A stretch of DNA of 64,000 nt, from assembly GCA_947574135.1 (NCBI GenBank), contig CANPIM010000001.1, positions 57,447 through 121,446 of the forward strand, in the 5' to 3' direction. Source of the stretch: an uncultured Lachnospiraceae bacterium. Its GTDB lineage: Bacteria > Bacillota > Clostridia > Lachnospirales > Lachnospiraceae. The notes beneath the pieces are model-generated. The model was not told the DNA's origin. It was given only the letters and a program-made list of their open reading frames with translations, and ran no database searches. A program made the position numbers and the translations under genes. Below, piece by piece: positions 5,398 to 62,861 of the stretch; positions within the stretch are counted from its first letter, which is position 1; the number at the start of each line of letters is the position of its first letter.

Positions 5398-6156
5398 TCA
5401 CAGCCACTCCTTATATTTCTTCCGATAGCTCCCCGGAGAGATCTCCATATAGCCCTTAAAGGCTCTGGAAAAAGCCTTCTCATCCTTATATCCCGCCGCT
5501 TCCGCTGCCTCCCAGATGCTCTTTCCCTCCATGAGCGCCTTGCTGGCCTGGTTCATGCGCACGGACAGCAAATACCGGGAGGGGCTCATGTGAAAGTTTT
5601 TCTGGAACCATCTGGAAAAATATGACCGATCCAGGCCTACGCAGGCCGCCAGCTCATCCACTGTGGGACAGCCATTTCCCCGCTCCTCCAAATAAGAAAG
5701 CACGGACTGCATACGGCTGCCCACAGGAGCCTGGGGCTTGATCCGCTGCCGAAGCCGCCTTAAAAACACCCCAAACAGGCAGAGCACCTCCTCAAAGCAA
5801 TCGGGATTTTCCTGCAATGCCTGGATTCCCTTCAGGAGATAGTAGAGCTCTCCATTTTCCTGAATTTTTATTTTCTCGTACCCCATAACAAAATCCGGCC
5901 TGCATTCTACATGGAACCACAGCACCTCTAAGGGATTCTGGGGATTATGCCACAGGGTATAGGGCTCCATAACCGGAAACACATATAAATATCCATGCTC
6001 CAGGAGCTCGTTCTGTCCCTCCACCTGGCGGTAGGCCTCTCCTCCGCACACATAGTAGATCCGGTGAAAGGTGGCACATTCTCCGGTCATCCCCCAGCCG
6101 GGCGGGCAGACGGTATAATCGTTTTGAAACAGGTCAAAAAAATCCCATGCCTTCAT
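5398..6156 (-). CDS. AraC family transcriptional regulator
   Basis: Cupin-like N-terminus and double HTH (VDELAACVGLDRSYFSRWF; GYKDEKAFSRAFK). Start set at ATG 6156, after AGGAG. Confidence 0.93.
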   Translation of the reverse strand: MKAWDFFDLFQNDYTVCPPGWGMTGECATFHRIYYVCGGEAYRQVEGQNELLEHGYLYVFPVMEPYTLWHNPQNPLEVLWFHVECRPDFVMGYEKIKIQENGELYYLLKGIQALQENPDCFEEVLCLFGVFLRRLRQRIKPQAPVGSRMQSVLSYLEERGNGCPTVDELAACVGLDRSYFSRWFQKNFHMSPSRYLLSVRMNQASKALMEGKSIWEAAEAAGYKDEKAFSRAFKGYMEISPGSYRKKYKEWL

Positions 6157-6160
6157 TTTT

Positions 6161-6287
6161 CTCCTATTAAAGTCGCTGCGCGACGGCACTGAAGAGTAAA
6201 GTCCCTTCGGCGCACTTTTTACGAGAGGAACTTTTATGCGTGCACGCCCGCATAAAAGTTCCTCTCGTGCGCCTTTGTGACTTTACT
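6161..6287. repeat. Structured intergenic repeat (REP/MITE-like or cis-RNA), copy 1
   Basis: Perfect 20-bp inverted repeat at 6221-6240/6249-6268, plus outer stems. The first 55 nt match 61545-61599 at 48 of 55 positions. Confidence 0.85.
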
Positions 6288-6495
6288 GGTTGAATCTATT
6301 CAAATTTCATGAACTGGAACTGTGGGGGCCTCTTGGGCGCTTTTGCGACTTTACTGGTTGAATTTATTCAAATTGGTAAATCGGAACTGTGGGGGCCTCT
6401 TGGGTGCTTTTGTGACTTTACTGGTTGAATTTATTCAAATCGGTGAACTGGAACTGTGGGGGGCTCTTGGGGCGCTTTTGCAACTTTACTGGCTT
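6269..6495. repeat. Tandem array of 67-68 bp units, about 3.3 copies
   Basis: Units start at 6269, 6337, 6404 and 6472. Consensus is approximately GCGCTTTTGYGACTTTACTGGTTGAATTTATTCAAAT-N9/10-GGAACTGTGGGGGCCTCTTGG. Confidence 0.95.
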
Positions 6496-6512
6496 GTTGT
6501 TTTTTGATTGGG

Positions 6513-7850
6513 CTAACCGAAGTAGGCGTCTATGGTTTCCCGGGCAATCTGGGCCCAGCGCCACAGCTTTTGGGGCTTATAATCCACGGTGCTGATATCT
6601 TTCAGCACAATCTCGATGGAGCAGCCTTCTGTCTCCCGAATTATTTGCTCAATCTCTTTTCTAGCCAGATCTTCGTGGAAGTCTCCCACGGCAAAGATGG
6701 CCGGATTGGGCTTACAGCTCATGACATATTTGCCTTTACAGCGCTGGGCCGCCGCCTTCCAGTTATTCCAGGGGCTCATGGATACCTTGCGCAGGTTGGG
6801 AATCTGATCCATTAAATCCATCTTAAAATGCAGGGGCTCACAGCAGCCATAGTAGTTCATGCCAAACTGCTTTAGCCACTCCATCTCATACTGGAGGGAG
6901 AACTGCATATGCATGGCCGGGCTTACCTCAGAGAAAATCTGGGCATTTCCGCAGCCCCACATCTGCCGAGTGTCACAGCCTCTCTGTCCTTCCTCCCGGG
7001 GAGCCAGATCCTTCGTAAACCCGTATCCTCCGGAGCCCACCCGGCAAGAACTGTTGTTCGATGCCCAAATGCCCAGTTCCCGGTATTTCTCCATGCGCAC
7101 CATGGCACAGTCCACATACCGCTTTACCACGGCCTCCACAAACTCCGGCTCCTCCACCATATTGAGCATGGTTTCCTGGATGCCCAGCACTCGGATCAGG
7201 TAATCCCAGGGAGTAAACCAGAGGCCTCTGGCCCCCACCACGATTACCGGCAGGATCCCCGCAAAGATTTCCTCCATCAGCTCCGTGTACTGCTTCGTCC
7301 GTTCCATATCCAGGATAATCTCCGGCTCCCTGATCTTTTCAATATCCTCCATACTGTGGATCAGAATATGAAAATGCCTGGATACCACCTCGCTGTTTCG
7401 GTCGGTTCTCCGGATATCCACCACCTCGTCAATGCCAAAGCCGCTGTCATACACCACCAGAGGGCTCTCCACATAGGGCTCAATGATGCAGTTTCCAAAT
7501 CCGTGCTCATAGCAATAGAGCTCCTTGCGCAGAAAATCCTCCAGCTCCCGGGCAAAGGGATGGGTACAGTAAAGGTTCAGCTCTCCCGTTCCGTTGAGCT
7601 CATTCCAGCAGATCTCGTCCACATAGACAGGCGGCCTGGTCATCTGAAGGTCATTGGCTGCCGTCCAAAGCTTTCGGTTCTCCTCCATCTCCGGCCGGGC
7701 CGCATACTCTGCCTTTTTCCTGCCAAGCTCCCGCAAAACCGCCACATCCTCCCCGGGTAGCTTAAGGCTGTCGGGATCCACTCGTCCAATGGGCTCCCCC
7801 TCCTTTCGGGTAATGCCAAATCGATCCGCCAAATTCAAATATCTGCTCAT
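6513..7850 (-). CDS. UroD-like/methyltransferase-fold protein of the YGCCEP subtype
   Basis: Motifs WFTPWD, AQIFSEVSP.MH..F, YYGCCEPLH, RKVSMSPW and KPNP. ATG at 7850 after AAGGAGG. Confidence 0.75.
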   Translation of the reverse strand: MSRYLNLADRFGITRKEGEPIGRVDPDSLKLPGEDVAVLRELGRKKAEYAARPEMEENRKLWTAANDLQMTRPPVYVDEICWNELNGTGELNLYCTHPFARELEDFLRKELYCYEHGFGNCIIEPYVESPLVVYDSGFGIDEVVDIRRTDRNSEVVSRHFHILIHSMEDIEKIREPEIILDMERTKQYTELMEEIFAGILPVIVVGARGLWFTPWDYLIRVLGIQETMLNMVEEPEFVEAVVKRYVDCAMVRMEKYRELGIWASNNSSCRVGSGGYGFTKDLAPREEGQRGCDTRQMWGCGNAQIFSEVSPAMHMQFSLQYEMEWLKQFGMNYYGCCEPLHFKMDLMDQIPNLRKVSMSPWNNWKAAAQRCKGKYVMSCKPNPAIFAVGDFHEDLARKEIEQIIRETEGCSIEIVLKDISTVDYKPQKLWRWAQIARETIDAYFG

Positions 7851-7980
7851 AGCGCCCTCCTTTCTCAACTCCTGTTTCTTCTATCTTACCACCTCCCCTT
7901 CCCGGTCACAACCAACCAGTGTGCGCTTTTCGTTGCAGTATGTGACATTTCAGCTGACTTTTTCTATACTTTTCTGTGTT

Positions 7981-8446: not shown

Positions 8447-9496
8447 CTATTCGTAGATCTTGTTGGCCTCGTCAAACAGCGCCTTGATATTTCTGGGGGG
8501 AACATCCGGCTGCAGTCCCTCGTGGCTGGGAGAAATAATCAGTCCTGTGGGGAAGTAGCCTCTCAGCTCCTTCACCTTGTCGGCCACCATCTCCGGTGTG
8601 CCGTGGGGAAGAAGATCCTGGGTATCCACGCCGCCGCAGAAGGAAACCTTTCCCTCGAACTTGGCCTTCAGATTTGCCGGATCCATGCCGGCCGCCAAAG
8701 CCTGGATGGGATGAATCACATCCACGCCCGCCTCAATGAGAAGGGGAATGGCCTCCACAATGGAGCCGCAGGAGTGGTATACCACCTTTACCCCATAGCT
8801 GTGGGCCAGATCAATAAGCTTTTTCGCTCCTGGGATTACAAACTCGGAGATCAGCGCCGGACTGATCATCAGTCCTCTCTGGCTTCCCACATCATCGCCG
8901 ATGAGAATGGCGTGAACCTTTCCCTTGGTAGCCTCCAGGAAAATCTTCAGAGCCTTTAAATAAAATTCCACAATCTTGTCATCCACATAGTGAACCATTT
9001 CCGGCTCTGCCACCATATTCATGAGGCAGGTCTGCATGCCAAAGGATGCGCACACATCCTGGAAATGGCAGGCCCAGAGCATTCCCATCACTACCTTGTC
9101 GTCAGGAGCCTCGTCTACCAGGCGCCTGCACTCCTCCGGATCGATATAGAGCTCCGGATCCGGCCAGGGGAAATTCACGGCCTTCACATCCTCCAGATCC
9201 TCACAGTGGGTAAAGCATCCGTCCGCTGTCAGGGTCCGGTGCTCCGTATCCACATTGCTGCCGTTCATATACCAGTCAAAGGCTGCGAAAATCGCGGAGC
9301 AGGTGGGGGATTTGTAGGGAATCTCCACTGCGTAGAAGTCATCGCCGCAAACCTTTTTCAATTCCTTAATGTCCTTTACCCCATAAAAATCACACAGGGC
9401 CGGAACTGCATCCGGTGTGGGGTCTCCCAGCCAGCAGGCGGGTCTGTCTACCGGCTTTCTCTCTACGGTTGCTTTAAAACGTTCGATACTGTTCAA
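8447..9496 (-). CDS. UroD/MtaA-CmuA family methyltransferase-like protein
   Basis: GDDVGSQRGLMISP, YHSCGS, GVDVIHPIQ, FCGGVDTQ and ISPSH. Confidence 0.88.
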   Translation of the reverse strand: MNSIERFKATVERKPVDRPACWLGDPTPDAVPALCDFYGVKDIKELKKVCGDDFYAVEIPYKSPTCSAIFAAFDWYMNGSNVDTEHRTLTADGCFTHCEDLEDVKAVNFPWPDPELYIDPEECRRLVDEAPDDKVVMGMLWACHFQDVCASFGMQTCLMNMVAEPEMVHYVDDKIVEFYLKALKIFLEATKGKVHAILIGDDVGSQRGLMISPALISEFVIPGAKKLIDLAHSYGVKVVYHSCGSIVEAIPLLIEAGVDVIHPIQALAAGMDPANLKAKFEGKVSFCGGVDTQDLLPHGTPEMVADKVKELRGYFPTGLIISPSHEGLQPDVPPRNIKALFDEANKIYE

Positions 9497-15148: not shown

Positions 15149-15250
15149 TCAAACCTCCCGTTTCCTTTGCATACTCTGTCATTTTGTTATCTCTTATCTT
15201 CTATTATAGCAAATCCTCCGTCATATTCAACAAATGTTTGTTTTTAAATT

Positions 15251-15261
15251 TAAACGTTTCA
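15251..15261. promoter_or_regulatory. LacI-type operator candidate
   Basis: TAAACGTTTCA between divergent promoters (extended -10 TGCTATAAT on minus at 15203-15211; TTGACA at 15282). Near-identical to 19731-19741. Confidence 0.55.
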
Positions 15262-15350
15262 CCATTAAATTTAAATTTAACTTGACAATTTATCTAATTT
15301 TAATTCATAATAAACTCATATTTTGTATACTTTTTGTATGGGAGAATCTT

Positions 15351-17603
15351 ATGACAACCTTAAAAGAAGTGGCCGAGCTGGCCGGTGTGTCCATCGCCAC
15401 CGTTTCCTACTGCATCAACGGCACCAAAAACATCAAGCCTGAGACAAGACTCAAGGTCATGCGGGCCATTGAGGAGCTCAATTACATTCCCAACCGCTCT
15501 GCCAAAAATCTCCGGGAGCCTGACAACCGGGAGATTGGTATTGTGATCCCGGATATTGAGGATCACTATTATTCCGAGATCCTAAAGGGCATTGTATATG
15601 AGGCGGAAAATGCCAATTATGCCCTGAATATCGCCTTTACCTACCGGGCTCCCAACCAGGAGTGCAAGATTATCCAGGATTTTATCAGCCGGAATGTGAG
15701 CGGCCTGGCCATTCTCACCTGCCAGCCCTCCAACACGGATTTTTTCAAGAACAGTGTGGTGCGCTACCACATTCCCTGTGTTTTTATTGACCGGATTCCT
15801 CAGGGGTTGAACGTAAACTTTCAGACCTTTGACAATTATACCACCATTCACTATCTGACCCGGCAACTGCTCTTGCATGGCTATCAGACCATCGGGCTTA
15901 TGACCGGGCCGGAGGATCTTCTGAGCGAATCGGACTGTATCTATGCCTTTACCGATGCCCATATTGAGCACAAGAAGGTCTATTATCCCGATCACATTCA
16001 TTCCTGCGATATGACCAAGGAGGGGGCTTTTCGCATTTTTATGAATTCCCTCCACAAGGGCATTCCCCAGGCTATTATCTCCTCCTCAGAGGATATGACC
16101 AAGGGCATTGTGGAGGTGTTAAACCTGTGCCATATCCGGATTCCGGAGGATATCTGTGTCATTACCCTTGGGGTGGAGTGCTGGAACAGCTCCAACTACC
16201 ATCCCCATGTGCTCCACACCTCCAGACAGGCCTACACCCTTGGGAAAAACTGCTGCCAGCTTCTTCTGCGCAACATCCAGTCCCCCCATCTCTTTGAGCC
16301 GGAATTTATGCTCCATCAGGAGCGCCACCTGGAGGACTCTCTGGTATTTCCCCCGCCTCCCAGGCCCTTCTCCTTCCCCACCAGCCAGAGGAAGCTTAAG
16401 ATTTTGGCTTTGTCCCTGCCCACGGTCCGGGCTCTGGACGCAGTTTCCCTGGAGTTTTCCCGGCTTTACGGCGCCCAGGTGGACATCGACTACCTGCCCA
16501 TGCGGGAGCTCTTTCACGCCATCTGCCAGGATTCCCGCAGGCTCCAGAGCGAATACGATGTCTATGTGGTGGATGTATCCTGGATGCGCTATCTGATTCA
16601 GGAGAAGCTTCTCATGGATATCACGGACTTTATCCAGTCCTGTACCCTGGAAACCGCCCATATGATACCGAAAAACCTGGAGAACTGCTGCTACAAGGGC
16701 CGGTATTACGGCCTGCCCATTATCGGCGGCACTCATCTGCTTTTTTACAGGAAGGATTTCTTTAACAGCACCAAGCTACAGCAGGCCTTTAAGGAGCAGC
16801 ACCATATCTCCCTTCGGCCTCCCAAGACCTGGACGGAATTTAACGGCATCGCCCGCTTTTTCACCCGATCCTTAAACCCGGAGTCTCCCTCCACCTATGG
16901 CACCTCCCTGCCTGCCTCCATGAGCGAGGAGCTGGCCCTGGAGATCCTGGTCCGGCTCTGGAGCTTTGGCGGCGGCCTCTTTGACCAGAATAACCGGCTG
17001 CTCTTAAATACCCCCCAGAATCTCCGGGGTTACCAGAGCATCCTGGAGACCTGCTCCTACGCGTCTCCCCATTTTATGACCCACAACCACCAGAAATCCT
17101 TCCAGGATTTCAGCACAGGAAAAACGGCCATGCTCATCTCCTTTACGGAGTATGCGGGGGATCTGAAAAACTATGTGCCCAACGATATGCTCTCCAGCGT
17201 GGGCTACTGCACCCTTCCCGGAGGCACGCCGGCCAATGTGGGCTGGCAGATGGGCATCAGCAAATCCACAAAAAATAAGGCCCTCATCGAGGACCTGTTT
17301 AAATGGATCTGCACCAAGCATACCAGCTATTACCTGACCATTCTGGACGGACAGGCTGTTATGAAATATCCCTACCAGAACCATGAGCTCCTGAAGCTCT
17401 ACCCCTGGCTGGACTTAACAGACGAGGGCATCCGCCTTTCCCACTCCCGCATCTATCCCCTACGGGGAAAGACCAGCAATGTTCCACCCTATCAGGTGGA
17501 GGCCGTGCTCTGTCAGACCTTTTACCAGATCTGGGAGAACGGCATGCCCATTGAGGAGGCTTTGGCGGATGCCCAGAAAGAGCTGTATCGTCTTTTTGCT
17601 TAG
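15351..17603 (+). CDS. LacI-family regulator fused to a C-terminal family-1 sugar-binding (type 2 PBP) domain
   Basis: MTTLKEVAELAGVSIATVS HTH, PBP1 effector domain, then YYGLPIIGG..LFYRKD and PPKTWTEF. Start moved to ATG 15351 (GGAG upstream). Confidence 0.9.
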   Translation: MTTLKEVAELAGVSIATVSYCINGTKNIKPETRLKVMRAIEELNYIPNRSAKNLREPDNREIGIVIPDIEDHYYSEILKGIVYEAENANYALNIAFTYRAPNQECKIIQDFISRNVSGLAILTCQPSNTDFFKNSVVRYHIPCVFIDRIPQGLNVNFQTFDNYTTIHYLTRQLLLHGYQTIGLMTGPEDLLSESDCIYAFTDAHIEHKKVYYPDHIHSCDMTKEGAFRIFMNSLHKGIPQAIISSSEDMTKGIVEVLNLCHIRIPEDICVITLGVECWNSSNYHPHVLHTSRQAYTLGKNCCQLLLRNIQSPHLFEPEFMLHQERHLEDSLVFPPPPRPFSFPTSQRKLKILALSLPTVRALDAVSLEFSRLYGAQVDIDYLPMRELFHAICQDSRRLQSEYDVYVVDVSWMRYLIQEKLLMDITDFIQSCTLETAHMIPKNLENCCYKGRYYGLPIIGGTHLLFYRKDFFNSTKLQQAFKEQHHISLRPPKTWTEFNGIARFFTRSLNPESPSTYGTSLPASMSEELALEILVRLWSFGGGLFDQNNRLLLNTPQNLRGYQSILETCSYASPHFMTHNHQKSFQDFSTGKTAMLISFTEYAGDLKNYVPNDMLSSVGYCTLPGGTPANVGWQMGISKSTKNKALIEDLFKWICTKHTSYYLTILDGQAVMKYPYQNHELLKLYPWLDLTDEGIRLSHSRIYPLRGKTSNVPPYQVEAVLCQTFYQIWENGMPIEEALADAQKELYRLFA

Positions 17604-18398: not shown

Positions 18399-19649
18399 CT
18401 ATTTTCTGGCATTTTGTACAGCCCTGTACATGGCCATAATATTTTCCGGGGGAACATCCGGCAGAATATTGTGTTCCGTGTTAAATACAAAGCCTCCGTC
18501 ATGGTGGAAGATGTCGATCATCCGACAGGTGTACTCGTACACCTCCTCCGGTGTGGCGTGGTTTAAGACCGAGCGGGTATTGCAGCCACCGCCCCAGAAG
18601 GTGATGTCCTTTCCGAACTCCTTCTTTAACCGGGCAGGATCCATCTGGTAGGCTGTGGTCTGCACCGGATTGATGATATCATAGCCCGCGTCAATGAGAT
18701 CTCCCATCACGCCGTAGATGGAGCCGCAGGAGTGGAGGAAGGTTTTCATATGGCTGTGGGTATGTACATACTCGTTAAGCTTGGTGTGATAGGGCTTAAA
18801 CAGCTCCCGGTACTTCTCCGCGGACATAAACATGTTCTTATCCATGCCCAGGTCATCCCCAAACCGCAGAATGTCCACCACGTCTCCCACAGCCGCACAG
18901 GTCTTTTCCAGGGTGTGGAGATGGCGCACCATGAGCTGCTCAATAAGCTCCTCCACGCTTTCCGGCTCCGCGTAGATATCCATCAGGAAGTTCTCCATCC
19001 GGCGCAGGAAGGTGCCCCACTCAAAAAGATTACAGCCGCAGGTAATCATCAGAGCCCGATCCGTGCTGGCCCGAAGCTTCAGGCACCGCTCCCTGAGATC
19101 TGCATAGAAGGCATCCTCTGTGGGGAAATCCTTCATATGATCCCAGGGCCCGTGCACCAGCGCGCTCCAGAGCACCTGTCCCATGGCATGATCCAGATCG
19201 TCGTAATTATCCGGATAGTCCTCCTTGTAGGGGAAAATCATCTGGTCAAAGCACATGCCTCCCTTGGGCATCCGGGCAATGAGCACCCCGTCCTGGTACA
19301 CATCGTAGCCACCGTCCGCGGTTTTTACCGGCTGAAACCAAGCGGGCCACTGACCGATTTTGCCATTGCTTAAGGTCACATCGTACCAGTCGCTGTCCTT
19401 CTCATTATATACCCGGGCCACGTCTAAGGCATCGGCGCCAATAAGATCCAGCACACACTCCTCCGGCTGGGCCACCTGCTGTACCACGTCGTAAATCCGG
19501 GTATGCCCCTCCTTCATTCCCAGATGCTCCTTTAAATTGGCATAGGCCTGGCCGGAGATTCCCGCGCTCACATTGCTGCCCAGATCCATGGGCAGATAAT
19601 CCGGCTCTTTATGGTTGATGGCTGCTAACACACGTTCTCTTGAAGTCAT
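18399..19649 (-). CDS. UroD/MtaA-CmuA family methyltransferase (candidate MT1), upstream of the corrinoid protein
   Basis: MTSRERV, FGDDLG, FLHSCGS, INPVQ, FWGGG and GGFVFN.EHNI. ATG at 19649. Confidence 0.9.
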   Translation of the reverse strand: MTSRERVLAAINHKEPDYLPMDLGSNVSAGISGQAYANLKEHLGMKEGHTRIYDVVQQVAQPEECVLDLIGADALDVARVYNEKDSDWYDVTLSNGKIGQWPAWFQPVKTADGGYDVYQDGVLIARMPKGGMCFDQMIFPYKEDYPDNYDDLDHAMGQVLWSALVHGPWDHMKDFPTEDAFYADLRERCLKLRASTDRALMITCGCNLFEWGTFLRRMENFLMDIYAEPESVEELIEQLMVRHLHTLEKTCAAVGDVVDILRFGDDLGMDKNMFMSAEKYRELFKPYHTKLNEYVHTHSHMKTFLHSCGSIYGVMGDLIDAGYDIINPVQTTAYQMDPARLKKEFGKDITFWGGGCNTRSVLNHATPEEVYEYTCRMIDIFHHDGGFVFNTEHNILPDVPPENIMAMYRAVQNARK

Positions 19650-19730
19650 ATGTACACACCTCTTTCTTTTTGATAACCCCATTATAGCGCACAAAAGAAA
19701 GAAAAGGCGGCTTTTTCCCAAATAAAAATC

Positions 19731-19841: not shown

Positions 19842-22163
19842 ATGGCAACCTTAAAGGATGTGGCCAGAGACGCCGGCGTCTCCATGGCTACGGTTTCCTG
19901 CTGCCTTACGGGCAGCAAGCCTGTAAAGAAATCCACCCGCATGAAAATCCTGGACTCCGTGGAACGGCTAAAATACATTCCCAACGCCTCCGCCCGGAAC
20001 CTGAGATCCCCCCGCTCCCGGCTGATCGGGGTGGTCCTCACGGATATTGACAACCTGTACCACGCGGAAATTTTTAAGGGAATCTCCAGCACCCTCCAAA
20101 GCCAGGGCTATACGGTGAGCGTGGCCTTTTCCAACAACCAGCCGGATCAGGAATGTGAAATTATTAACGATTTTATCAGTCAAAATGTGGCAGGCCTTCT
20201 CCTTATTACCTGCCAGCCCCAAAATACGGATTTTTTTCAGAGCCGCATTCTGAATTTTCATATTCCCGCCGTTTTTTTGGAGCGGATCCCCCTGGATCTG
20301 GACGTATGTCTGGCAGGCTTTCAAAATGAAGAGACCACCTTTTTCCTCACAGACGCTCTTCTTAAAAAAGGCTACAGGCAAATCGGTCTGGTCCTGGGAC
20401 CTCCCTCCTTCTCCTCGGAGCGGGACTGTATCCTGGGCTATCAGCGGGCCTTTGTTAAAAATGGTCTCTCCCCGGACTCTTCTCTTATCTGCACCACCAA
20501 CCTGACCAAGGAAGATGCCTTTAAAACCGTGCTCACCACCTTAAGCAAGCGTCCCCTGGAGGCGGTGATCTCCTCCTCGGAAACCCTGCACTGGGGATCC
20601 CTGGAGGCCTTAAAAAACCGGGGCCTTTCCATCCCCGGACAGGTTCTTCTGCTCACCTTTGGGGAGGAGTCCTGGAGCCAGGCCCACCGGACCCCAGGGG
20701 TTATCTATACCTCCCGGACTGCCTTTCACCTGGGCTCCTGCGCCGCAAGCCTGCTATGGAAGCATATCCGTTACCCGGACTGTACGGAAAAAACCCGGAT
20801 TCTGTCGGATTCCATTCTCAGGGAGGTCCTGGATATTCCGCCGGTTGGCCAGAAATGCTCTCCCAAGGCCAATCCCCTTGAACAGGGGGCCCCGGAGAAG
20901 GTGTGTCCGTCCAGCACGGACATGCAGCTTCGCGTCCTTCTGGCGGATCTGTCCACGGCCCACAATGTGGAGCTCCTAAGCGATTCCTTTACCCGTGGCA
21001 CCGGTATCCGCCTCTCCTTTCAATATCTTCCCCAGAAGGAGCTGCTGCCCTATATCAGCCATCACTCGGAGGAGACCCAGGCCTTTGACATTTGCATGTA
21101 TGATATTCCCTGGCTGGATTATCTGGTGCAGAATTCCCTGCTTATGGATCTCACGGATTTTATCACTGGGGGAGATTTTCACCCGGAATATATTTTCCCG
21201 GAAAACATGGAAAACTGCCGCTGTCAGGACGGCTACTACGGGATTCCCCTTATTGGCGGCTCTCAAATCCTCTTTTATCGAAGGGATCTCTTTGAGGACA
21301 GCCAATGCCAGAAGCTCTATTACAAGCTTCATGGCATTCCCCTAAAGCCGCCCCGGACCTGGACGGAATTTAACCGGATCGCCGCCTTTTTCACCCAGGG
21401 GGAGAATCCCCAATCCCCCACCCTGTTTGGCACCTCCCTGGCTGGCATCACCGATGAGGAGCTGGCCCCGGAGCTTTTGATTCGCCTCTGGGCCATGAAC
21501 GGCCGCCTGTGGGACGCCTACAACCGCCCCTGCCTGAACTGTCCGGAAAATCAGGCGGCCCTTATGAGCGTCCTGGAGACTCTGCGCTACACAGGCTCCC
21601 ATCCCTTTGCCACCTCCATCCCTCAGACCGTGGAGGATTTCTCCCAGGGCAGGACAGCCATGCTCATCACCTACACGGAATACGCCACCCAAATCAGCCG
21701 AAGCCTCCACGAAAATATTATCGGTCAGGTGGGCTATAAGATTTTGCCCGGAAGGCGCCCTGCCAGCATTGGCTGGAATCTGGGGGTAAACCCCTATTCT
21801 CAAAGGCTCTCTCTGGCCTGCCGGTTTTTTGGATGGCTCTGCCAGAAGGACACCAGCTTTTATATGACCATCCTGGACGGACAATCCCCGGTTATGGCTC
21901 CCTACCACAGCCTGGAGCTTTTAAAGCTCTACCCCTGGATGTCCATTACAGAGGAAAGCTTCTCCTACACCCAAAAAAGAAAAGGACCCTATAAGCATAA
22001 GGCCCTTGTGGTTCCCCAAAATAAGATAGAAGCCATTCTCTGTCAAACCCTTCGGCAAATTCTCCTGGAGGGCTCCTCCGTCTCCCAGGCTCTTTCCGAC
22101 AATCAGGAGCGGCTTAAAAGCCTTCTTTTGTCCTACGGCTATCCCCGGCCCTTTACCAGATAG
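19842..22163 (+). CDS. Second LacI/solute-binding fusion regulator (paralogue of 15351..17603)
   Basis: MATLKDVARDAGVSMATVS HTH. The C-terminal part has YYGIPLIGG..LFYRRD and PPRTWTEF. Confidence 0.9.
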   Translation: MATLKDVARDAGVSMATVSCCLTGSKPVKKSTRMKILDSVERLKYIPNASARNLRSPRSRLIGVVLTDIDNLYHAEIFKGISSTLQSQGYTVSVAFSNNQPDQECEIINDFISQNVAGLLLITCQPQNTDFFQSRILNFHIPAVFLERIPLDLDVCLAGFQNEETTFFLTDALLKKGYRQIGLVLGPPSFSSERDCILGYQRAFVKNGLSPDSSLICTTNLTKEDAFKTVLTTLSKRPLEAVISSSETLHWGSLEALKNRGLSIPGQVLLLTFGEESWSQAHRTPGVIYTSRTAFHLGSCAASLLWKHIRYPDCTEKTRILSDSILREVLDIPPVGQKCSPKANPLEQGAPEKVCPSSTDMQLRVLLADLSTAHNVELLSDSFTRGTGIRLSFQYLPQKELLPYISHHSEETQAFDICMYDIPWLDYLVQNSLLMDLTDFITGGDFHPEYIFPENMENCRCQDGYYGIPLIGGSQILFYRRDLFEDSQCQKLYYKLHGIPLKPPRTWTEFNRIAAFFTQGENPQSPTLFGTSLAGITDEELAPELLIRLWAMNGRLWDAYNRPCLNCPENQAALMSVLETLRYTGSHPFATSIPQTVEDFSQGRTAMLITYTEYATQISRSLHENIIGQVGYKILPGRRPASIGWNLGVNPYSQRLSLACRFFGWLCQKDTSFYMTILDGQSPVMAPYHSLELLKLYPWMSITEESFSYTQKRKGPYKHKALVVPQNKIEAILCQTLRQILLEGSSVSQALSDNQERLKSLLLSYGYPRPFTR

Positions 22164-34196: not shown

Positions 34197-35086
34197 ATCT
34201 CCTCACCTCCTGTAAACCGAAGCAGCAAGCTTCTGCTGCCCCCTACCAGAATCAGACTGACGATTAAAATTACAATGGACATGGCGCTTCCATAACCCAT
34301 CTTAAAGGACAAGAAAGAGGTTTTATACGCATACATGGCCATTACGCTGCTGGAATAGCCCGGTCCCCCGTTGGTCAGGGAATAGATAAGGTCAAAAATT
34401 TTCATATTGCCCGCAATACACAGGGTCACACACACAATCAGCGTATTTTTAATCAGGGGAAGTGTAATATATACCGCCTTTTTCCATCCGCTGGCGCCGT
34501 CAATCTCCGCCATCTCAAAAATCTCCGAATCCACAGACGCCAGGGCCGACATAATAATAATCATATAGTAGCCAATATATTGCCAAATCAGAGGAATCGC
34601 CACCAGGGGCAACACCAGCTTGTCATTGTTCAGCCAGGCCTGCACCTTATCTCCCATTCCGATAAAGGTCAGAAAGGAATTCAATAGCCCATAATTGTAG
34701 TCATAAATCAGACTCCAGATAAATCCCACCACTACAGCCGAGAGAACCGCAGGGAAGTAGCTCATCACCCGGTGAAAGCCCTTTAGCTTTATATGGCGGC
34801 CGCTGAGCAAAAAGGCCAGAATAAACGCTATGCCAATCTGTCCAATCAGGCATACTACCGTCAAATAAATATTGTTAAACAGAGACTTCCGAAAAACCGG
34901 GTCTTTCATGACCTCTATGAAATTTTGAAGTCCCACAAAAGTCTTTTTGGCGCCTCCGCTCCAGTCAAAAAATCCATAATATCCGGCCAGAATAACTGGA
35001 ATCAGAATAATAAAGCTATACCATAGAAGTCCGGGCAGCATGCACAAGAAGATGCTGCTTTTTTTCATTTTCAGGCAAGTTTTCAT
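34193..35086 (-). CDS. Carbohydrate ABC permease (MalF-like)
   Basis: FVGLQNF, EMAEIDGAS, TNGGPG and G..SA. ATG at 35086 after AGGAGG. Confidence 0.95.
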   Translation of the reverse strand: MKTCLKMKKSSIFLCMLPGLLWYSFIILIPVILAGYYGFFDWSGGAKKTFVGLQNFIEVMKDPVFRKSLFNNIYLTVVCLIGQIGIAFILAFLLSGRHIKLKGFHRVMSYFPAVLSAVVVGFIWSLIYDYNYGLLNSFLTFIGMGDKVQAWLNNDKLVLPLVAIPLIWQYIGYYMIIIMSALASVDSEIFEMAEIDGASGWKKAVYITLPLIKNTLIVCVTLCIAGNMKIFDLIYSLTNGGPGYSSSVMAMYAYKTSFLSFKMGYGSAMSIVILIVSLILVGGSRSLLLRFTGGEEI

Positions 35087-35105
35087 ATTCCCTCCTATTA
35101 TTTTT

Positions 35106-35136
35106 AAAGGATGCCGCATGGATTACGGCATCCTTT
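35106..35136. terminator. Stem-loop after the SBP gene (partial terminator or mRNA stabiliser)
   Basis: AAAGGATGCCG-N9-CGGCATCCTTT. Confidence 0.75.
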
Positions 35137-35143
35137 TTAATTC

Positions 35144-60557: not shown

Positions 60558-61535
60558 CTAATTTCCCGCAAAAATCCGGGCAATGGGGGAATTGGAGGGC
60601 AGAATGAGAGTCTTTTCGTTGCTTCCCTTCAGGCTTTCCTTGGCCGCATCCAGGCTCCGCACAAAGGAATAAAAGTCGCTTCGGCTCTCATCCGCATAGG
60701 CATCTGAGAGAATCCGCATGTATTCCGCCTCGCCCTCCGCCACAATCTGCTCCGCCTGTGCCTTGGCCTCCGAGAGCATAATGGAAACCTCCTTGTCCGT
60801 GGTGTTCTGAATAATCTGGGCCTGGGAAGCGCCCTCCGCCGTGTACTGAGCCGCAATATTCTCCCGCTCGGAGATCATCCGACTGTAAACCGCCTGCTTA
60901 TTGTCGTCGGGCAGATCAAGCTTTTTTACCTCCACCGTCAAAATGGCAATGCCGTACTGGTCCGCCACGTCACCCAGGCTTTCCATAATCTCCTCGGTAA
61001 GAGATTTGATCTCAATCACCGTCTCCTTCTCCTCCAGCACCAGATCGTTGGACTCTACTTCCTCCTCCGTGTCGCTGACAGTCACAGTCATCTTTCCATC
61101 CCGGCTCTTAATCACCTCGTCCTGGGTCATATTGGACACCGTGTTTTTGGTTGTGTTGTATACAACTGCATTGATCCGGTTCTCCGCATTGTACACAGAG
61201 CCGCTTAAAGTCTGGGTAAACTTTAAGGGATCCGTTACCCGCCAGAGCACATAGCTGTCCACAATCATGGACTTTTTATCCGAGGTGATCACATCCGAGG
61301 CCGGCAGATCGTACATCAGGATCTCCTTGGGAATGGTGTCCACTGACTGGATAAAGGGAATCTTCATGGAAAGCCCTGCCACGGAAATCACCCGCTGCAC
61401 CTTTCCAAACTGACGGATAAGCTTATATTCGTTTTCCTGGCAGACAATCAGGCTGTTTCCCAGCAAAAGCAACACAATAACCAGTAAAATATATTTAATT
61501 GCCCCAAGACCTTTTCGTTTCTTTTTTTCTTCCAT
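60558..61535 (-). CDS. hflC: FtsH modulator HflC (SPFH domain)
   Basis: N-terminal TM segment, KIPFIQ.V, TSDKK, RMISER..IA and DFYSF.RSL. Confidence 0.93.
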   Translation of the reverse strand: MEEKKKRKGLGAIKYILLVIVLLLLGNSLIVCQENEYKLIRQFGKVQRVISVAGLSMKIPFIQSVDTIPKEILMYDLPASDVITSDKKSMIVDSYVLWRVTDPLKFTQTLSGSVYNAENRINAVVYNTTKNTVSNMTQDEVIKSRDGKMTVTVSDTEEEVESNDLVLEEKETVIEIKSLTEEIMESLGDVADQYGIAILTVEVKKLDLPDDNKQAVYSRMISERENIAAQYTAEGASQAQIIQNTTDKEVSIMLSEAKAQAEQIVAEGEAEYMRILSDAYADESRSDFYSFVRSLDAAKESLKGSNEKTLILPSNSPIARIFAGN

Positions 61536-61544
61536 CTTAAAAAC

Positions 61545-61671
61545 CTCCTATTGAAATCGCTGCGCGATGGCACTGAAGGGCAAAGTCACTTTGGCGCACA
61601 TTCTTTGAGAGAAACTTTCATGCGTAAATGCACGCCTGAAAATTCCTCTCGTGCGCCTTCGCGACTTTACC
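61545..61671. repeat. Structured intergenic repeat, copy 2
   Basis: 48/55 identity with 6161-6215 and a shared TTCCTCTCGTGCGCCTT...GACTTTAC 3' arm. Confidence 0.85.
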
Positions 61672-61754
61672 TCGTGTCTGCACGGCTTTGCCTCGTGTCT
61701 GCACGGCTTTACCTAGTGTCTGCACGGCTTTACCTCGTGTCTGCACGACTTTGC
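61663..61754. repeat. Tandem 21-bp repeat, four copies plus a partial
   Basis: Approximately GRCTTTRCCTCGTGTCTGCAC at 61663, 61684, 61705 and 61726. A partial second element head follows at ~61763-61802. Confidence 0.95.
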
Positions 61755-61808
61755 TTGGCAAACTGCGCCATGGCACTGAAGGGGAATGTCACTTTGGCTC
61801 ACTCTCTT

Positions 61809-62861
61809 TTATTCTTCACTCTCTGTATCGCTGCCGGATGTGTCTGTGGCTCCTCCTGCACCGGAGACTGTCCCACCGGTTCCGGAGACTCCGCTGAATA
61901 CGTCCAGGGGCAGAATCTGCTGGATCTGGTTTCCGTTTTCTCCCTGGATGATGATCTTCATCCCTGGCATGACTTCCTCCATGGTCTCATAGAACATCCG
62001 CTGCCTGGTGGTGTTGGGATACTTTACATATTCCTCATACATGGAATTAAAGCGGGCCACCTGGCCTTCCGCCTCGTTGATACGGCTCTCCTTCTGGGCC
62101 TCCGCATCCTGGAGTATCTTGTCCGCCTCAGCTCTGGCCTGGGGAATCTGCTCGTTGCGATATTTATTGGCGTTATTTAAGGCTGTCTCCTTGCCCTGCT
62201 TAGCCGTCTCCACCTCCTTAAAGGCTGTGATAACCTCATCGGTGGGAGGCTGAGCGTCCTGGATGGTAATATTTACCAGCTGGACGCCGATATCATAGGT
62301 TTCCAGCTTATCCATAATCATTTCTTTAATGTTGGCCTGTATCTCATTCTTTCCCGTGGTGAGCACCGCGTCCACGGAATAGGAGCCTATGGTGGTTCGA
62401 ATACAGTTCTGGGCAATGTTGTCCAAAATGGTCACCGGATCCTCGGAGGCGTACAGAGCCTTTACCGGATCGGAAATCCGGTACTCTGCGTAGAAATCCA
62501 CCCGGATGAAATTGTAATCCGAGGTAATCATCATGGCGTCATCGGTATAATTTTCCGCCTCGTCATAACCTACAGTAAGTCCCTGAATGGTGGTATTCAC
62601 CTTGGTTACGGTCTGAATCAGGGGAATCTTAAAATGAAGGCCCGGCTCTGTCACGGCCTTGGGCTGTCCCAGGGTGCAGACCACCGCCTGCTGCTCCTCC
62701 TGAATGGTGTACCAGCAGGAATTTGCCAAAATCACCAGCAGAACCACCAGCACTGCGATTCCCACATTCCGCATAACCTTCCTGCGCATCTTTTTGAGAT
62801 TTTCCACGCCGGGGCCTGGATTATCATTCACATCCCGATAGTTTTTTCTGAAATTCAGCAT
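61809..62861 (-). CDS. hflK: FtsH modulator HflK (SPFH domain)
   Basis: PGLHFKIP, MITSD.N, QPP..V..AF..V and AEGQVARF. Confidence 0.93.
   Translation of the reverse strand: MLNFRKNYRDVNDNPGPGVENLKKMRRKVMRNVGIAVLVVLLVILANSCWYTIQEEQQAVVCTLGQPKAVTEPGLHFKIPLIQTVTKVNTTIQGLTVGYDEAENYTDDAMMITSDYNFIRVDFYAEYRISDPVKALYASEDPVTILDNIAQNCIRTTIGSYSVDAVLTTGKNEIQANIKEMIMDKLETYDIGVQLVNITIQDAQPPTDEVITAFKEVETAKQGKETALNNANKYRNEQIPQARAEADKILQDAEAQKESRINEAEGQVARFNSMYEEYVKYPNTTRQRMFYETMEEVMPGMKIIIQGENGNQIQQILPLDVFSGVSGTGGTVSGAGGATDTSGSDTESEE

Follow-up and report, generated by a model that had tools for sequence, protein, structure and literature searches.

A modular hairpin repeat placed against Shine-Dalgarno sequences in Acetatifactor-like Lachnospiraceae, a probable RBS-targeting mobile element

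Two copies of a structured DNA element, located 55 kb apart in a 64-kb stretch of an uncultured Lachnospiraceae bacterium (contig CANPIM010000001.1; the whole 64-kb stretch is referred to as the window), are members of a hitherto undescribed family of small, modular, non-autonomous repeats found in Acetatifactor-like Lachnospiraceae of the mouse gut. At about 40 of 41 sites, the element is oriented in the sense direction and its 3' end lies 0-2 nt before the GGAG(G) of a gene, that is, its Shine-Dalgarno (SD) sequence. Close relatives in which the block is absent from the same gene junction show, on sequence comparison, that the block was inserted. The explanation that we consider probable is that of a non-autonomous, strand-specific mobile repeat which targets ribosome-binding sites (RBS) and is co-transcribed with the neighbouring genes. 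A non-autonomous mobile element had been among the proposals of an earlier reading of the window made from the letters alone (the sequence-only reading), and this part of it is now supported by additional copies, covariation, empty sites and the negative outcome of the Rfam search.

The element is read here on the minus strand of the window, which is the mRNA sense, and all the element coordinates given below belong to this strand. Both copies display the same order: a 93-nt three-tier hairpin (H), a 23-nt motif (T) holding a hairpin with a 5-bp stem and the 3-nt loop GCA, a 7-nt tail of consensus YTTnAATA, GGAG(G), a spacer and the ATG of the next gene. In copy 1, H extends over 6195..6287 and comprises the outer stem AGUAAAGUC/GACUUUACU, the middle stem GGCGCAC/GUGCGCC, an inner stem of 18-20 bp and a 7-nt 3' bulge, an arrangement backed by covariation. 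The T motif, CUUCAGUGCC-GUCGC-GCA-GCGAC, follows at 6172..6194 with its small hairpin at 6172-6184, and the tail UUUAAUA at 6165..6171 forms the 3' end of the inserted block according to the comparison of filled and empty araC sites. The adjoining segment 6154..6164, made of the native SD GGAG (6161-6164), the spacer AAAA and the ATG (6154-6156) of a gene of the AraC family (Pfam HTH_18/HTH_AraC), is flank and not element, empty relatives reading GGAGAGAA directly followed by ATG. In copy 2, H occupies 61579..61671, with an outer stem GGUAAAGUC/GACUUUGCC containing a U.G pair; T, CUUCAGUGCC-AUCGC-GCA-GCGAU, lies at 61556..61578 (small hairpin 61556-61568), the tail UUCAAUA at 61549..61555, and the SD GGAGG (61544-61548), spacer and ATG (61533-61535) of hflC at 61533..61548.

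The description of these copies in the sequence-only reading proved accurate. They are present at 6161-6287 and 61545-61671, share 48 of the first 55 nt, and are identical at 104 of 127 positions without gaps; a repeat search of the window reports 83% identity over 126 nt. On the plus strand, the small hairpin changes from GTCGC-TGC-GCGAC to ATCGC-TGC-GCGAT, a G-C pair being replaced by A-T. The outer stem reads AGTAAAGTC/GACTTTACT in copy 1 and GGCAAAGTC/GACTTTACC in copy 2, where a C.A mismatch of the plus strand corresponds to a G.U pair (U.G) on the mRNA-sense strand, and the inner stem of copy 1 is a perfect 20-bp helix, ACGAGAGGAACTTTTATGCG/CGCATAAAAGTTCCTCTCGT. The next genes likewise encode the products announced, an AraC-family regulator (confirmed by Pfam) after copy 1 and an HflC-like Band_7 protein after copy 2. 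The minus-strand RNAs fold with predicted energies of -64.5 and -62.7 kcal/mol, corresponding to z scores of -7.5 and -7.7 against dinucleotide shuffles. Allowing up to 3 mismatches, the window contains exactly two occurrences of the 25-nt T motif CTTCAGTGCCRTCGCGCAGCGAYTT, compared with an expectation of 0.00. The likeness of the two copies is real and far beyond chance. For araC, a longer open reading frame (ORF) starting at a GTG within T (6189) is possible; translation of a peptide through T was considered and rejected, the reading frame differing between the two window copies.

The two copies are not alone, as the sequence-only reading had expected: about 40 distinct sites are found in genomes and metagenomes of Acetatifactor-like Lachnospiraceae. 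An exact scan for the T motif with CTTCAGTGCCNTCGCGCAGCGA, performed on one genome per species, returned 55 matches at 43 loci, nearly all of them labelled Lachnospiraceae or Clostridia, the carriers including Acetatifactor metagenome-assembled genomes, mouse-gut isolates, 1XD21-13 and IMSAGC_003. A metagenome scan anchored in H with the 14-mer AAGGCGCACGAGAG added at least 7 further true copies, each followed by a T variant (CUUUAGUGCC...); this 14-mer is too short to serve as a pattern and yields mostly noise, 5 loci being real among the matches listed. A covariance model built from 24 copies identified further full and partial copies within the same loci. Across many genomes, about 40 unrelated junctions carry 130-nt blocks that are 80-96% identical to one another. 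Within a single genome, identity between copies at different sites reaches 96% and averages 86%, against a mean of 79% between genomes. In mouse-gut metagenomes, the 31-mers of the element are 40-500x deeper than the flanking single-copy DNA. The identity within genomes and the metagenome depth speak for a recent spread. The Rfam search proposed in the sequence-only reading was also run and produced no match at gathering score anywhere in the window, and Rfam contains no such family; the matches with E<=10 around both copies are far below threshold, mostly plant miRNA-precursor models lying on the long hairpin, and were dismissed as spurious. No description of the family was found in the literature searched. 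A single match among viral contigs, located in a high-GC contig, was judged to be due to chance. Many of the metagenome contigs carrying an HflC 94-98% identical to that of the window (P0003, P0005-P0010) measure only 1.2-2.5 kb, as would be expected if assemblies break at the repeat.

The layout of the sites is highly regular. In RNA sense, a site opens with the stop of an upstream gene on the same strand, or with a leader that follows a promoter or divergent gene, and continues with an optional decayed copy, an optional module U, an (H-T)n array, the tail YTTnAATA, GGAG(G), 4-10 nt and ATG. The optional decayed or truncated copy consists of the 3' arm of H and T. Arrays (T-H-T-H-T) are frequent, with 5'-truncated copies and private minisatellites on their upstream side, and decayed or truncated copies lie further from the gene. 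Downstream of each terminal T left intact by contig ends and runs of N, an ATG-initiated ORF of at least 60 aa begins at a distance of 16-37 nt, one ambiguous match (L006) being the exception, and the copies found by the covariance model rather than by the T pattern show the same placement. Orientation and distance to the start codon, whose randomness in further copies would have spoken against the sequence-only reading, are not random: the copies are sense-oriented and the start codon falls 16-37 nt after T. The upstream gene is co-directional in nearly all cases. Contact with the SD is kept even where the intergenic region measures 211-354 nt, a placement which would not result from tolerance of insertions alone. 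Conservation ends right after GGAG, and the spacers to the ATG all differ. The genes on either side are unrelated housekeeping genes; the flanking pairs and genes include prmA-rsmE, accDA-fabH, fabF-fabZ, rny-proC, prfA-glmM, hflK-hflC, pyrB, uppP, adk, PTS genes and response regulators. Within the window, which contains about 50 genes, AATAGGAG followed by a start codon occurs 3 times, 2 of which are the copies.

The structure of the element is conserved as well. Forty distinct full-length copies were aligned to the covariance model, which defines 39 pairs, and compared with 500 shuffles. Standard pairs fill 92.6% of the cells and 19 of the 39 pairs have changed on both sides, so that a covariation which was only suggestive from two copies is now strong; the copies being related, the counted compensatory changes are not independent events. 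None of the 500 shuffles reached the observed value for the percentage paired, the double-change pairs, the double-change cells or the covariation score, while for a fifth measure, the number of further pair types, 88 of 500 did so. When partners are offset by 1-3 columns, pairing falls to 36-54%, and a MAFFT alignment of 24 copies agrees with the result from 40. At the closing position of the T hairpin, 31 copies have G-C and 9 have A-U, without a single mismatch. The 5' arm GCGCACGAGAG, the T flank and the T loop are invariant or nearly so beyond the needs of pairing, and this extra invariance points to recognition of sequence as well as shape. In 37 of 39 copies, the predicted fold of H is more stable on the sense strand than on the complementary one (means of -45.8 and -39.8 kcal/mol), and H holds 60 G.U pairs in sense against 20 in antisense. 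The hairpins of the element are under selection on the sense strand, and the fold may matter as RNA or as single-stranded DNA.

The module U and the subfamily H' were observed at other loci and are absent from the window. U is a third hairpin module (TCCRGCUAAGAAAU...AUUUCUGCYGG) with covarying stems that precedes H at many sites in the form AATAG followed by TCCRGCTAAGAAAT...ATTTCTGCYGG; it is located at L002 5115-5130, L020 2973-2988, L040 5505-5520, L074 4109-4124 and L118 406-421, and also in L017, L037 and L153, and (A)ATAG stands directly before it in 8 of 8 cases. The subfamily H' (L165 1883-2000; L037 5558-5669) has the three-tier architecture of H (AGCCCC/GGGGGCU, GGGAGAAUUUUCAG/CUGAAAAUUUCUCCC) with another sequence and without the T hairpin, and its tail GGAACUYUAAAUA leads directly into GGAGG.

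Filled and empty orthologous sites were compared, as the sequence-only reading had suggested, and empty sites exist for araC, hflK-hflC and an epimerase gene. The araC site provides the clean pair. In three empty relatives (L173-L175), whose AraC proteins are 87% and 83% identical to that of the window and whose neighbours are shared, the junction reads ...GGA TAG, GGAGAGAA, ATG. In the window it reads ...GGT TAG, then 348 nt ending in CTTTAATA, then GGAGAAAA and ATG. The whole intergenic region between the upstream 451-aa gene (stop TAG 6513-6515) and araC thus covers 6157..6512, the orthologous region of the relatives being 8 nt long. Read most simply, these sequences indicate that the block entered between the stop codon and an SD that was already there, and no duplication is needed; the site is best explained without a target duplication, though with this single pair a TA or TAG repeat may be involved. 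The sequence-only reading had left the choice between an element that targets an RBS and one that carries it. Targeting is favored, the SD being native at this one clean filled/empty pair, and carriage is not.

The other junctions extend this picture. The hflK-hflC junction measures 0-17 nt or overlaps in six empty lineages whose HflC proteins are 74-93% identical, and 273 nt in the window. A relative with a 97% identical HflC (L165) has 118 nt consisting of H' without T and ending in the tail GGAACTCTAAATA, and the junction is filled independently in L019, where HflC is only 57% identical; it was therefore hit more than once. At the epimerase site, the flank GAGGAAAGAG followed by ATG is common to genomes with and without the element; the junction without it (L176-L178 1272-1500) holds an unrelated 229-nt purine-rich spacer with tandem repeats of its own (GAAGUGAAAUAAAGAAGAGAAUCAGGAA...). 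At the fabH junction, related genomes differ in the number of units, with a solo remnant (0 units), a single unit, or at least 3.

Local rearrangements accompany the copies. In RNA sense upstream of copy 1, a 67-nt x 3.4 tandem array (6261..6492) overlaps the start of H; its units are diverged 5' halves of H (CCAGUAAAGUCRCAAAAGCRCCCAAGAGG...) and are absent from every other locus searched. Upstream of copy 2, a 21-nt x 4.2 array of unit GUGCAGACACGAGGUAAAGCC (61665..61752), private to the window genome, repeats the 5' outer arm of H. It is preceded by a third copy, 5'-truncated and decayed, in which the 3' arm of H and a degenerate T (...GCCAAAGUGACAUUCCCCUUCAGUGCCAUGGCGCAG) lie at 61763..61807 directly after the hflK stop, with a weak covariance-model match at 61749-61877. 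This third copy and the two arrays, each re-using the 5' outer arm of H, had escaped the sequence-only reading. Elsewhere, small secondary palindromes lie between T and SD (L025 at about 2793-2830; L010, minus strand, downstream of 3606), namely GGAGAUC-AUAA-GAUCUCC and ACAAUAGAAAGC/AAGCUUUCUAUUGU; each repeats a portion of the tail or SD and resembles a template-switch product. As the minisatellites and small palindromic insertions at these sites demonstrate, arrays are shaped in part by slippage and template switching. In L019 (about 330-360), L001 (about 380-390) and L127 (5960-5970), the upstream gene ends within element-derived sequence, at a stop codon located in CAUAAG of the 3' arm of H or in CUUUAG of T; some genes have thus had their 3' ends remodelled by the element.

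The element is transcribed, since its words and T-H junctions occur in metatranscriptome contigs. Scanning the sense strand of the two intergenic regions of the window yielded no promoter or terminator call, and no promoter was called inside the element. A TTGACA-17-TATAAA promoter missed by the scan was recognized by eye upstream of the element in L012. The GC skew of the window plus strand ranges from -0.10 to -0.18; the minus strand is therefore the G-rich leading-strand sequence, which places the folding strand on the lagging-strand template.

These data can be assembled into the following mechanism. The element would be mobilised, now or recently, in trans by an enzyme that recognises the folded sense strand, either as single-stranded DNA on the lagging-strand template or as RNA, together with a target at the 5' edge of the SD, in a style resembling the peel-and-paste elements of the IS200/IS605 type (PATEs). 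Such an enzyme would account for the polarity, for the apparent lack of target duplication and for arrays building up at the SD. Once inserted, the element would be carried in the mRNA. By analogy with Correia, ERIC and BIME repeats, the long H helix (20-25 bp) is probably a substrate of RNase III and/or a 3'-end protector for the upstream cistron, and T with the A/U-rich tail would provide the downstream SD with a standard, mostly unpaired context.

A number of observations weigh against this explanation. No transposase, integrase or reverse transcriptase was found by Pfam among the 36 ORFs of the window nor in the flanking genes elsewhere, and blastn detected no copies on plasmid or phage records. 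Only one clean filled/empty pair defines the 3' boundary with single-nucleotide precision. At the 5' junction, TAG is found in 7 of 26 arrays compared with a background TAG stop use of 21%, and many 5' junctions differ; an enrichment of TAG is not established. Within arrays, the linkers from T to the next H range in length from 0 to 12 nt or more; simple precise re-insertion therefore does not explain the arrays, to which slippage or recombination must have contributed. At one site, located between convergent genes, no gene start follows. RNA depth over the flanks is 3-100x, not above the DNA depth of 40-500x, as measured on assembled contigs broken at the repeat. The predicted gain in SD accessibility is weak, 0.57 against 0.45 with shuffled upstream sequence, and is seen in 17 of 25 copies. 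The likeness to PATEs is also incomplete, the conserved junction being here on the 3' side (before GGAG), the two end hairpins being dissimilar, and neither TnpA nor TnpB appearing among the scanned ORFs.

The main rival is a cis-acting RNA selected by the host, in which H and T would form the operator of an RNA-binding protein or ribonuclease governing a dispersed post-transcriptional regulon, with dispersal by recombination being secondary. The strict sense orientation and fixed SD distance, the transcription of the element and the folding specific to the sense strand all agree with such an operator, as does covariation combined with invariant single-stranded and 5'-arm nucleotides, which suggests sequence-specific recognition. 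This proposal is nevertheless at odds with the genes served, which have no common function, and with the comparative data: the same junctions are empty in relatives at 74-93% protein identity, the 97% relative has the T-less subfamily at the same junction, copy number at one site goes from 0 to at least 3, and decayed copies accumulate upstream. No Rfam family matches. The segment CCCUU(C/U) located 5' of T can pair with GGAGG, and does so in the minimum-free-energy fold of copy 2, but it varies (CUUC/CUUU) without compensating change and is absent in H'; sequestration of the SD by CCCUUC, present in that one fold, was rejected on these grounds. An operator is on balance unlikely, while deserving more weight than any other rival. 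Distinctly doubtful is a scenario of guided RBS homing, with a single-stranded or RNA intermediate whose 3' end or partner protein reads GGAGG or the anti-SD, or an omega-RNA-like H+T scaffold that has the SD and start region as its adjacent flank, or else domestication as a protein-bound, genome-wide translational operator. If it were true, the element would be the first mobile repeat known to use the SD itself as its address.

The remaining rivals fare worse. Recombination sites of gene cassettes, comparable to integron attC, or REP/RAYT repeats would explain bulged imperfect palindromes that fold on one strand between co-oriented ORFs, and consecutive junctions of one operon do each carry a copy in L004, L010 and L038. 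Such sites are very improbable here, as the flanking genes are core genes whose order is unchanged with or without the element (hflK-hflC, araC neighbourhood), there is no GTTRRRY/RYYYAAC core, the size of 93 + 23 nt, the direct arrangement and the missing GTAG head differ from REP/REPIN, and the scanned window ORFs include no integrase or Y1 gene. It is scarcely credible that the hairpins are intrinsic terminators or attenuators between genes: although very stable and located downstream of stop codons, they lack a U tract after H or T, H being followed by CUUCAGUGCC; none was called on the sense strand, the element also occurs in 5' leaders after promoters or divergent genes, and its conserved end is tied to the downstream SD and not to the upstream stop. 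Finally, each site could be an independent product of slippage and template switching, the likeness reflecting convergence on a good RBS context. Private minisatellites (67 nt, 21 nt) and small palindromic insertions do arise locally, but 130-nt blocks 80-96% identical recur at about 40 junctions, the chance expectation for T is 0, and AATAGGAG is no general RBS context in the window. On the strength of the aligned sequences, we regard this rival as refuted by the family-wide identity.

The family so delineated can be compared to several known systems. BOX and BIME repeats are thought to be non-autonomous and to affect the expression of co-transcribed genes (PMC3049150). Like pneumococcal BOX (boxA-boxB(n)-boxC) and the BIMEs of E. 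coli (REP mosaics), the element is small, modular, dispersed and intergenic, has variable internal modules, is co-transcribed with an extensive predicted RNA fold and has no coding capacity. The modular build is apparent in (H-T)n, with n from 0 to at least 3 at one site, in the optional U and in the H' subfamily. There is no sequence relation to either, the likeness being of kind only; BOX and BIME occur in both orientations at variable distances from genes, whereas the present element is found in sense only with its 3' end at the SD, and BOX has terminal inverted repeats while this element is asymmetric (H, T, tail). Neisseria REP2 (CREN) and Borrelia IR have no terminal inverted repeats, contain two internal stem-loops, lie directly upstream of ORFs and are tied to the RBS (Delihas 2011, PMC3184786). 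Dispersal, lack of terminal inverted repeats, two stem-loops and the RBS tie are shared features. REP2 and Borrelia IR are described as carrying promoter, RBS and ATG; here, no promoter was detected, the SD is native at the clean pair, the start codon is outside, and most copies are, unlike theirs, intercistronic.

Correia (NEMIS) and ERIC/IRU repeats are reported to alter the stability of flanking cistrons through processing by RNase III or RNase E (PMC3049150). The element resembles them in its size of about 100-150 bp, its long mRNA hairpins and its presence or absence at orthologous sites, such polymorphism being observed at araC, hflK-hflC and the epimerase gene. It differs from them in that Correia and ERIC have 26-bp terminal inverted repeats, a TA duplication, either orientation and no tie to the SD. 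The label REP/MITE-like of the sequence-only reading is not borne out, defining features of REP/RAYT repeats and classical MITEs being absent. The terminal inverted repeats of classical MITEs are lacking, H being internal and the ends CCCAATC... and ...CTTTAATA at araC being unrelated. The unit of 93 + 23 nt, with array copies always direct and never inverted and without a GTAG head, does not correspond to the 20-40 nt imperfect palindromes of REP/REPIN, which typically form inverted pairs, and no RAYT gene appeared among the 36 window ORFs or the flanking genes elsewhere. Integron attC sites are likewise imperfect palindromes between co-oriented ORFs, recognised by their one-strand structure and with a variable centre; unlike attC, the element has no R/L cores, its outer stem GGTAAAGTC/GACTTTACC lacks GTTRRRY, it is flanked by syntenic core genes, and no integrase was found among the scanned ORFs. 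PATEs derive from IS200/IS605, move by HUH Y1 peel-and-paste and have a conserved target of 4-5 nt located 5' of their left end. The absence of terminal inverted repeats at the extremes, of any need for duplication (araC), the hairpins on one strand, the fixed orientation relative to an asymmetric target and the location of the folding strand on the lagging-strand template are common to both, and PATEs match in part.

Several other features of the window were recorded. The only other occurrence of AATAGGAG with a start codon lies at about 35080-35140 (-), where a hairpin GGATGCCG-uaauccau-CGGCAUCC precedes UUUAAAAAUAAUAGGAGG and an ATG that opens an ABC permease gene. The covariance model of the family does not match this site, which probably represents a terminator or attenuator within the operon, behind the gene of the binding protein. 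Upstream of copy 1, the 451-aa gene (6513-7868, -) has no Pfam match. The 36 ORFs scanned include sugar transporters, URO-D-family enzymes, CarAB, a TRAP transporter, PFOR and NlpC/P60 proteins. The uroporphyrinogen-decarboxylase-like genes of the URO-D family (1446-2492, 8447-9496 and 18399-19721, all -) are located amid sugar ABC transporters, rhaM and AraC/LacI regulators. Two paralogous long ORFs, 15234-17603 (+) and 19842-22163 (+), 4530 nt apart, each combine a LacI-type DNA- and sugar-binding regulator with an extracellular solute-binding domain (SBP_bac_1) and are either fusions or mis-joined ORFs.

The element is of a kind already known, BOX/BIME/ERIC/PATE-like. Small dispersed repeats are common in bacteria and, as a rule, are only loosely constrained in where they lie and which way they point with respect to genes. 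The new property is the near-absolute polarity combined with placement against the SD. Insertion appears to be targeted to a feature of every gene, which would represent a new choice of target for a bacterial mobile element. Operons may be rewired in the process, intercistronic junctions of 0-17 nt becoming structured spacers of 120-430 nt. Gene callers can be misled by the element, as ORFs run into it and some stops lie inside. The element is abundant in mouse-gut Lachnospiraceae, and the natural filled and empty alleles of one and the same junction offer a ready test of how a large hairpin before the RBS affects translation and mRNA decay in Clostridia.

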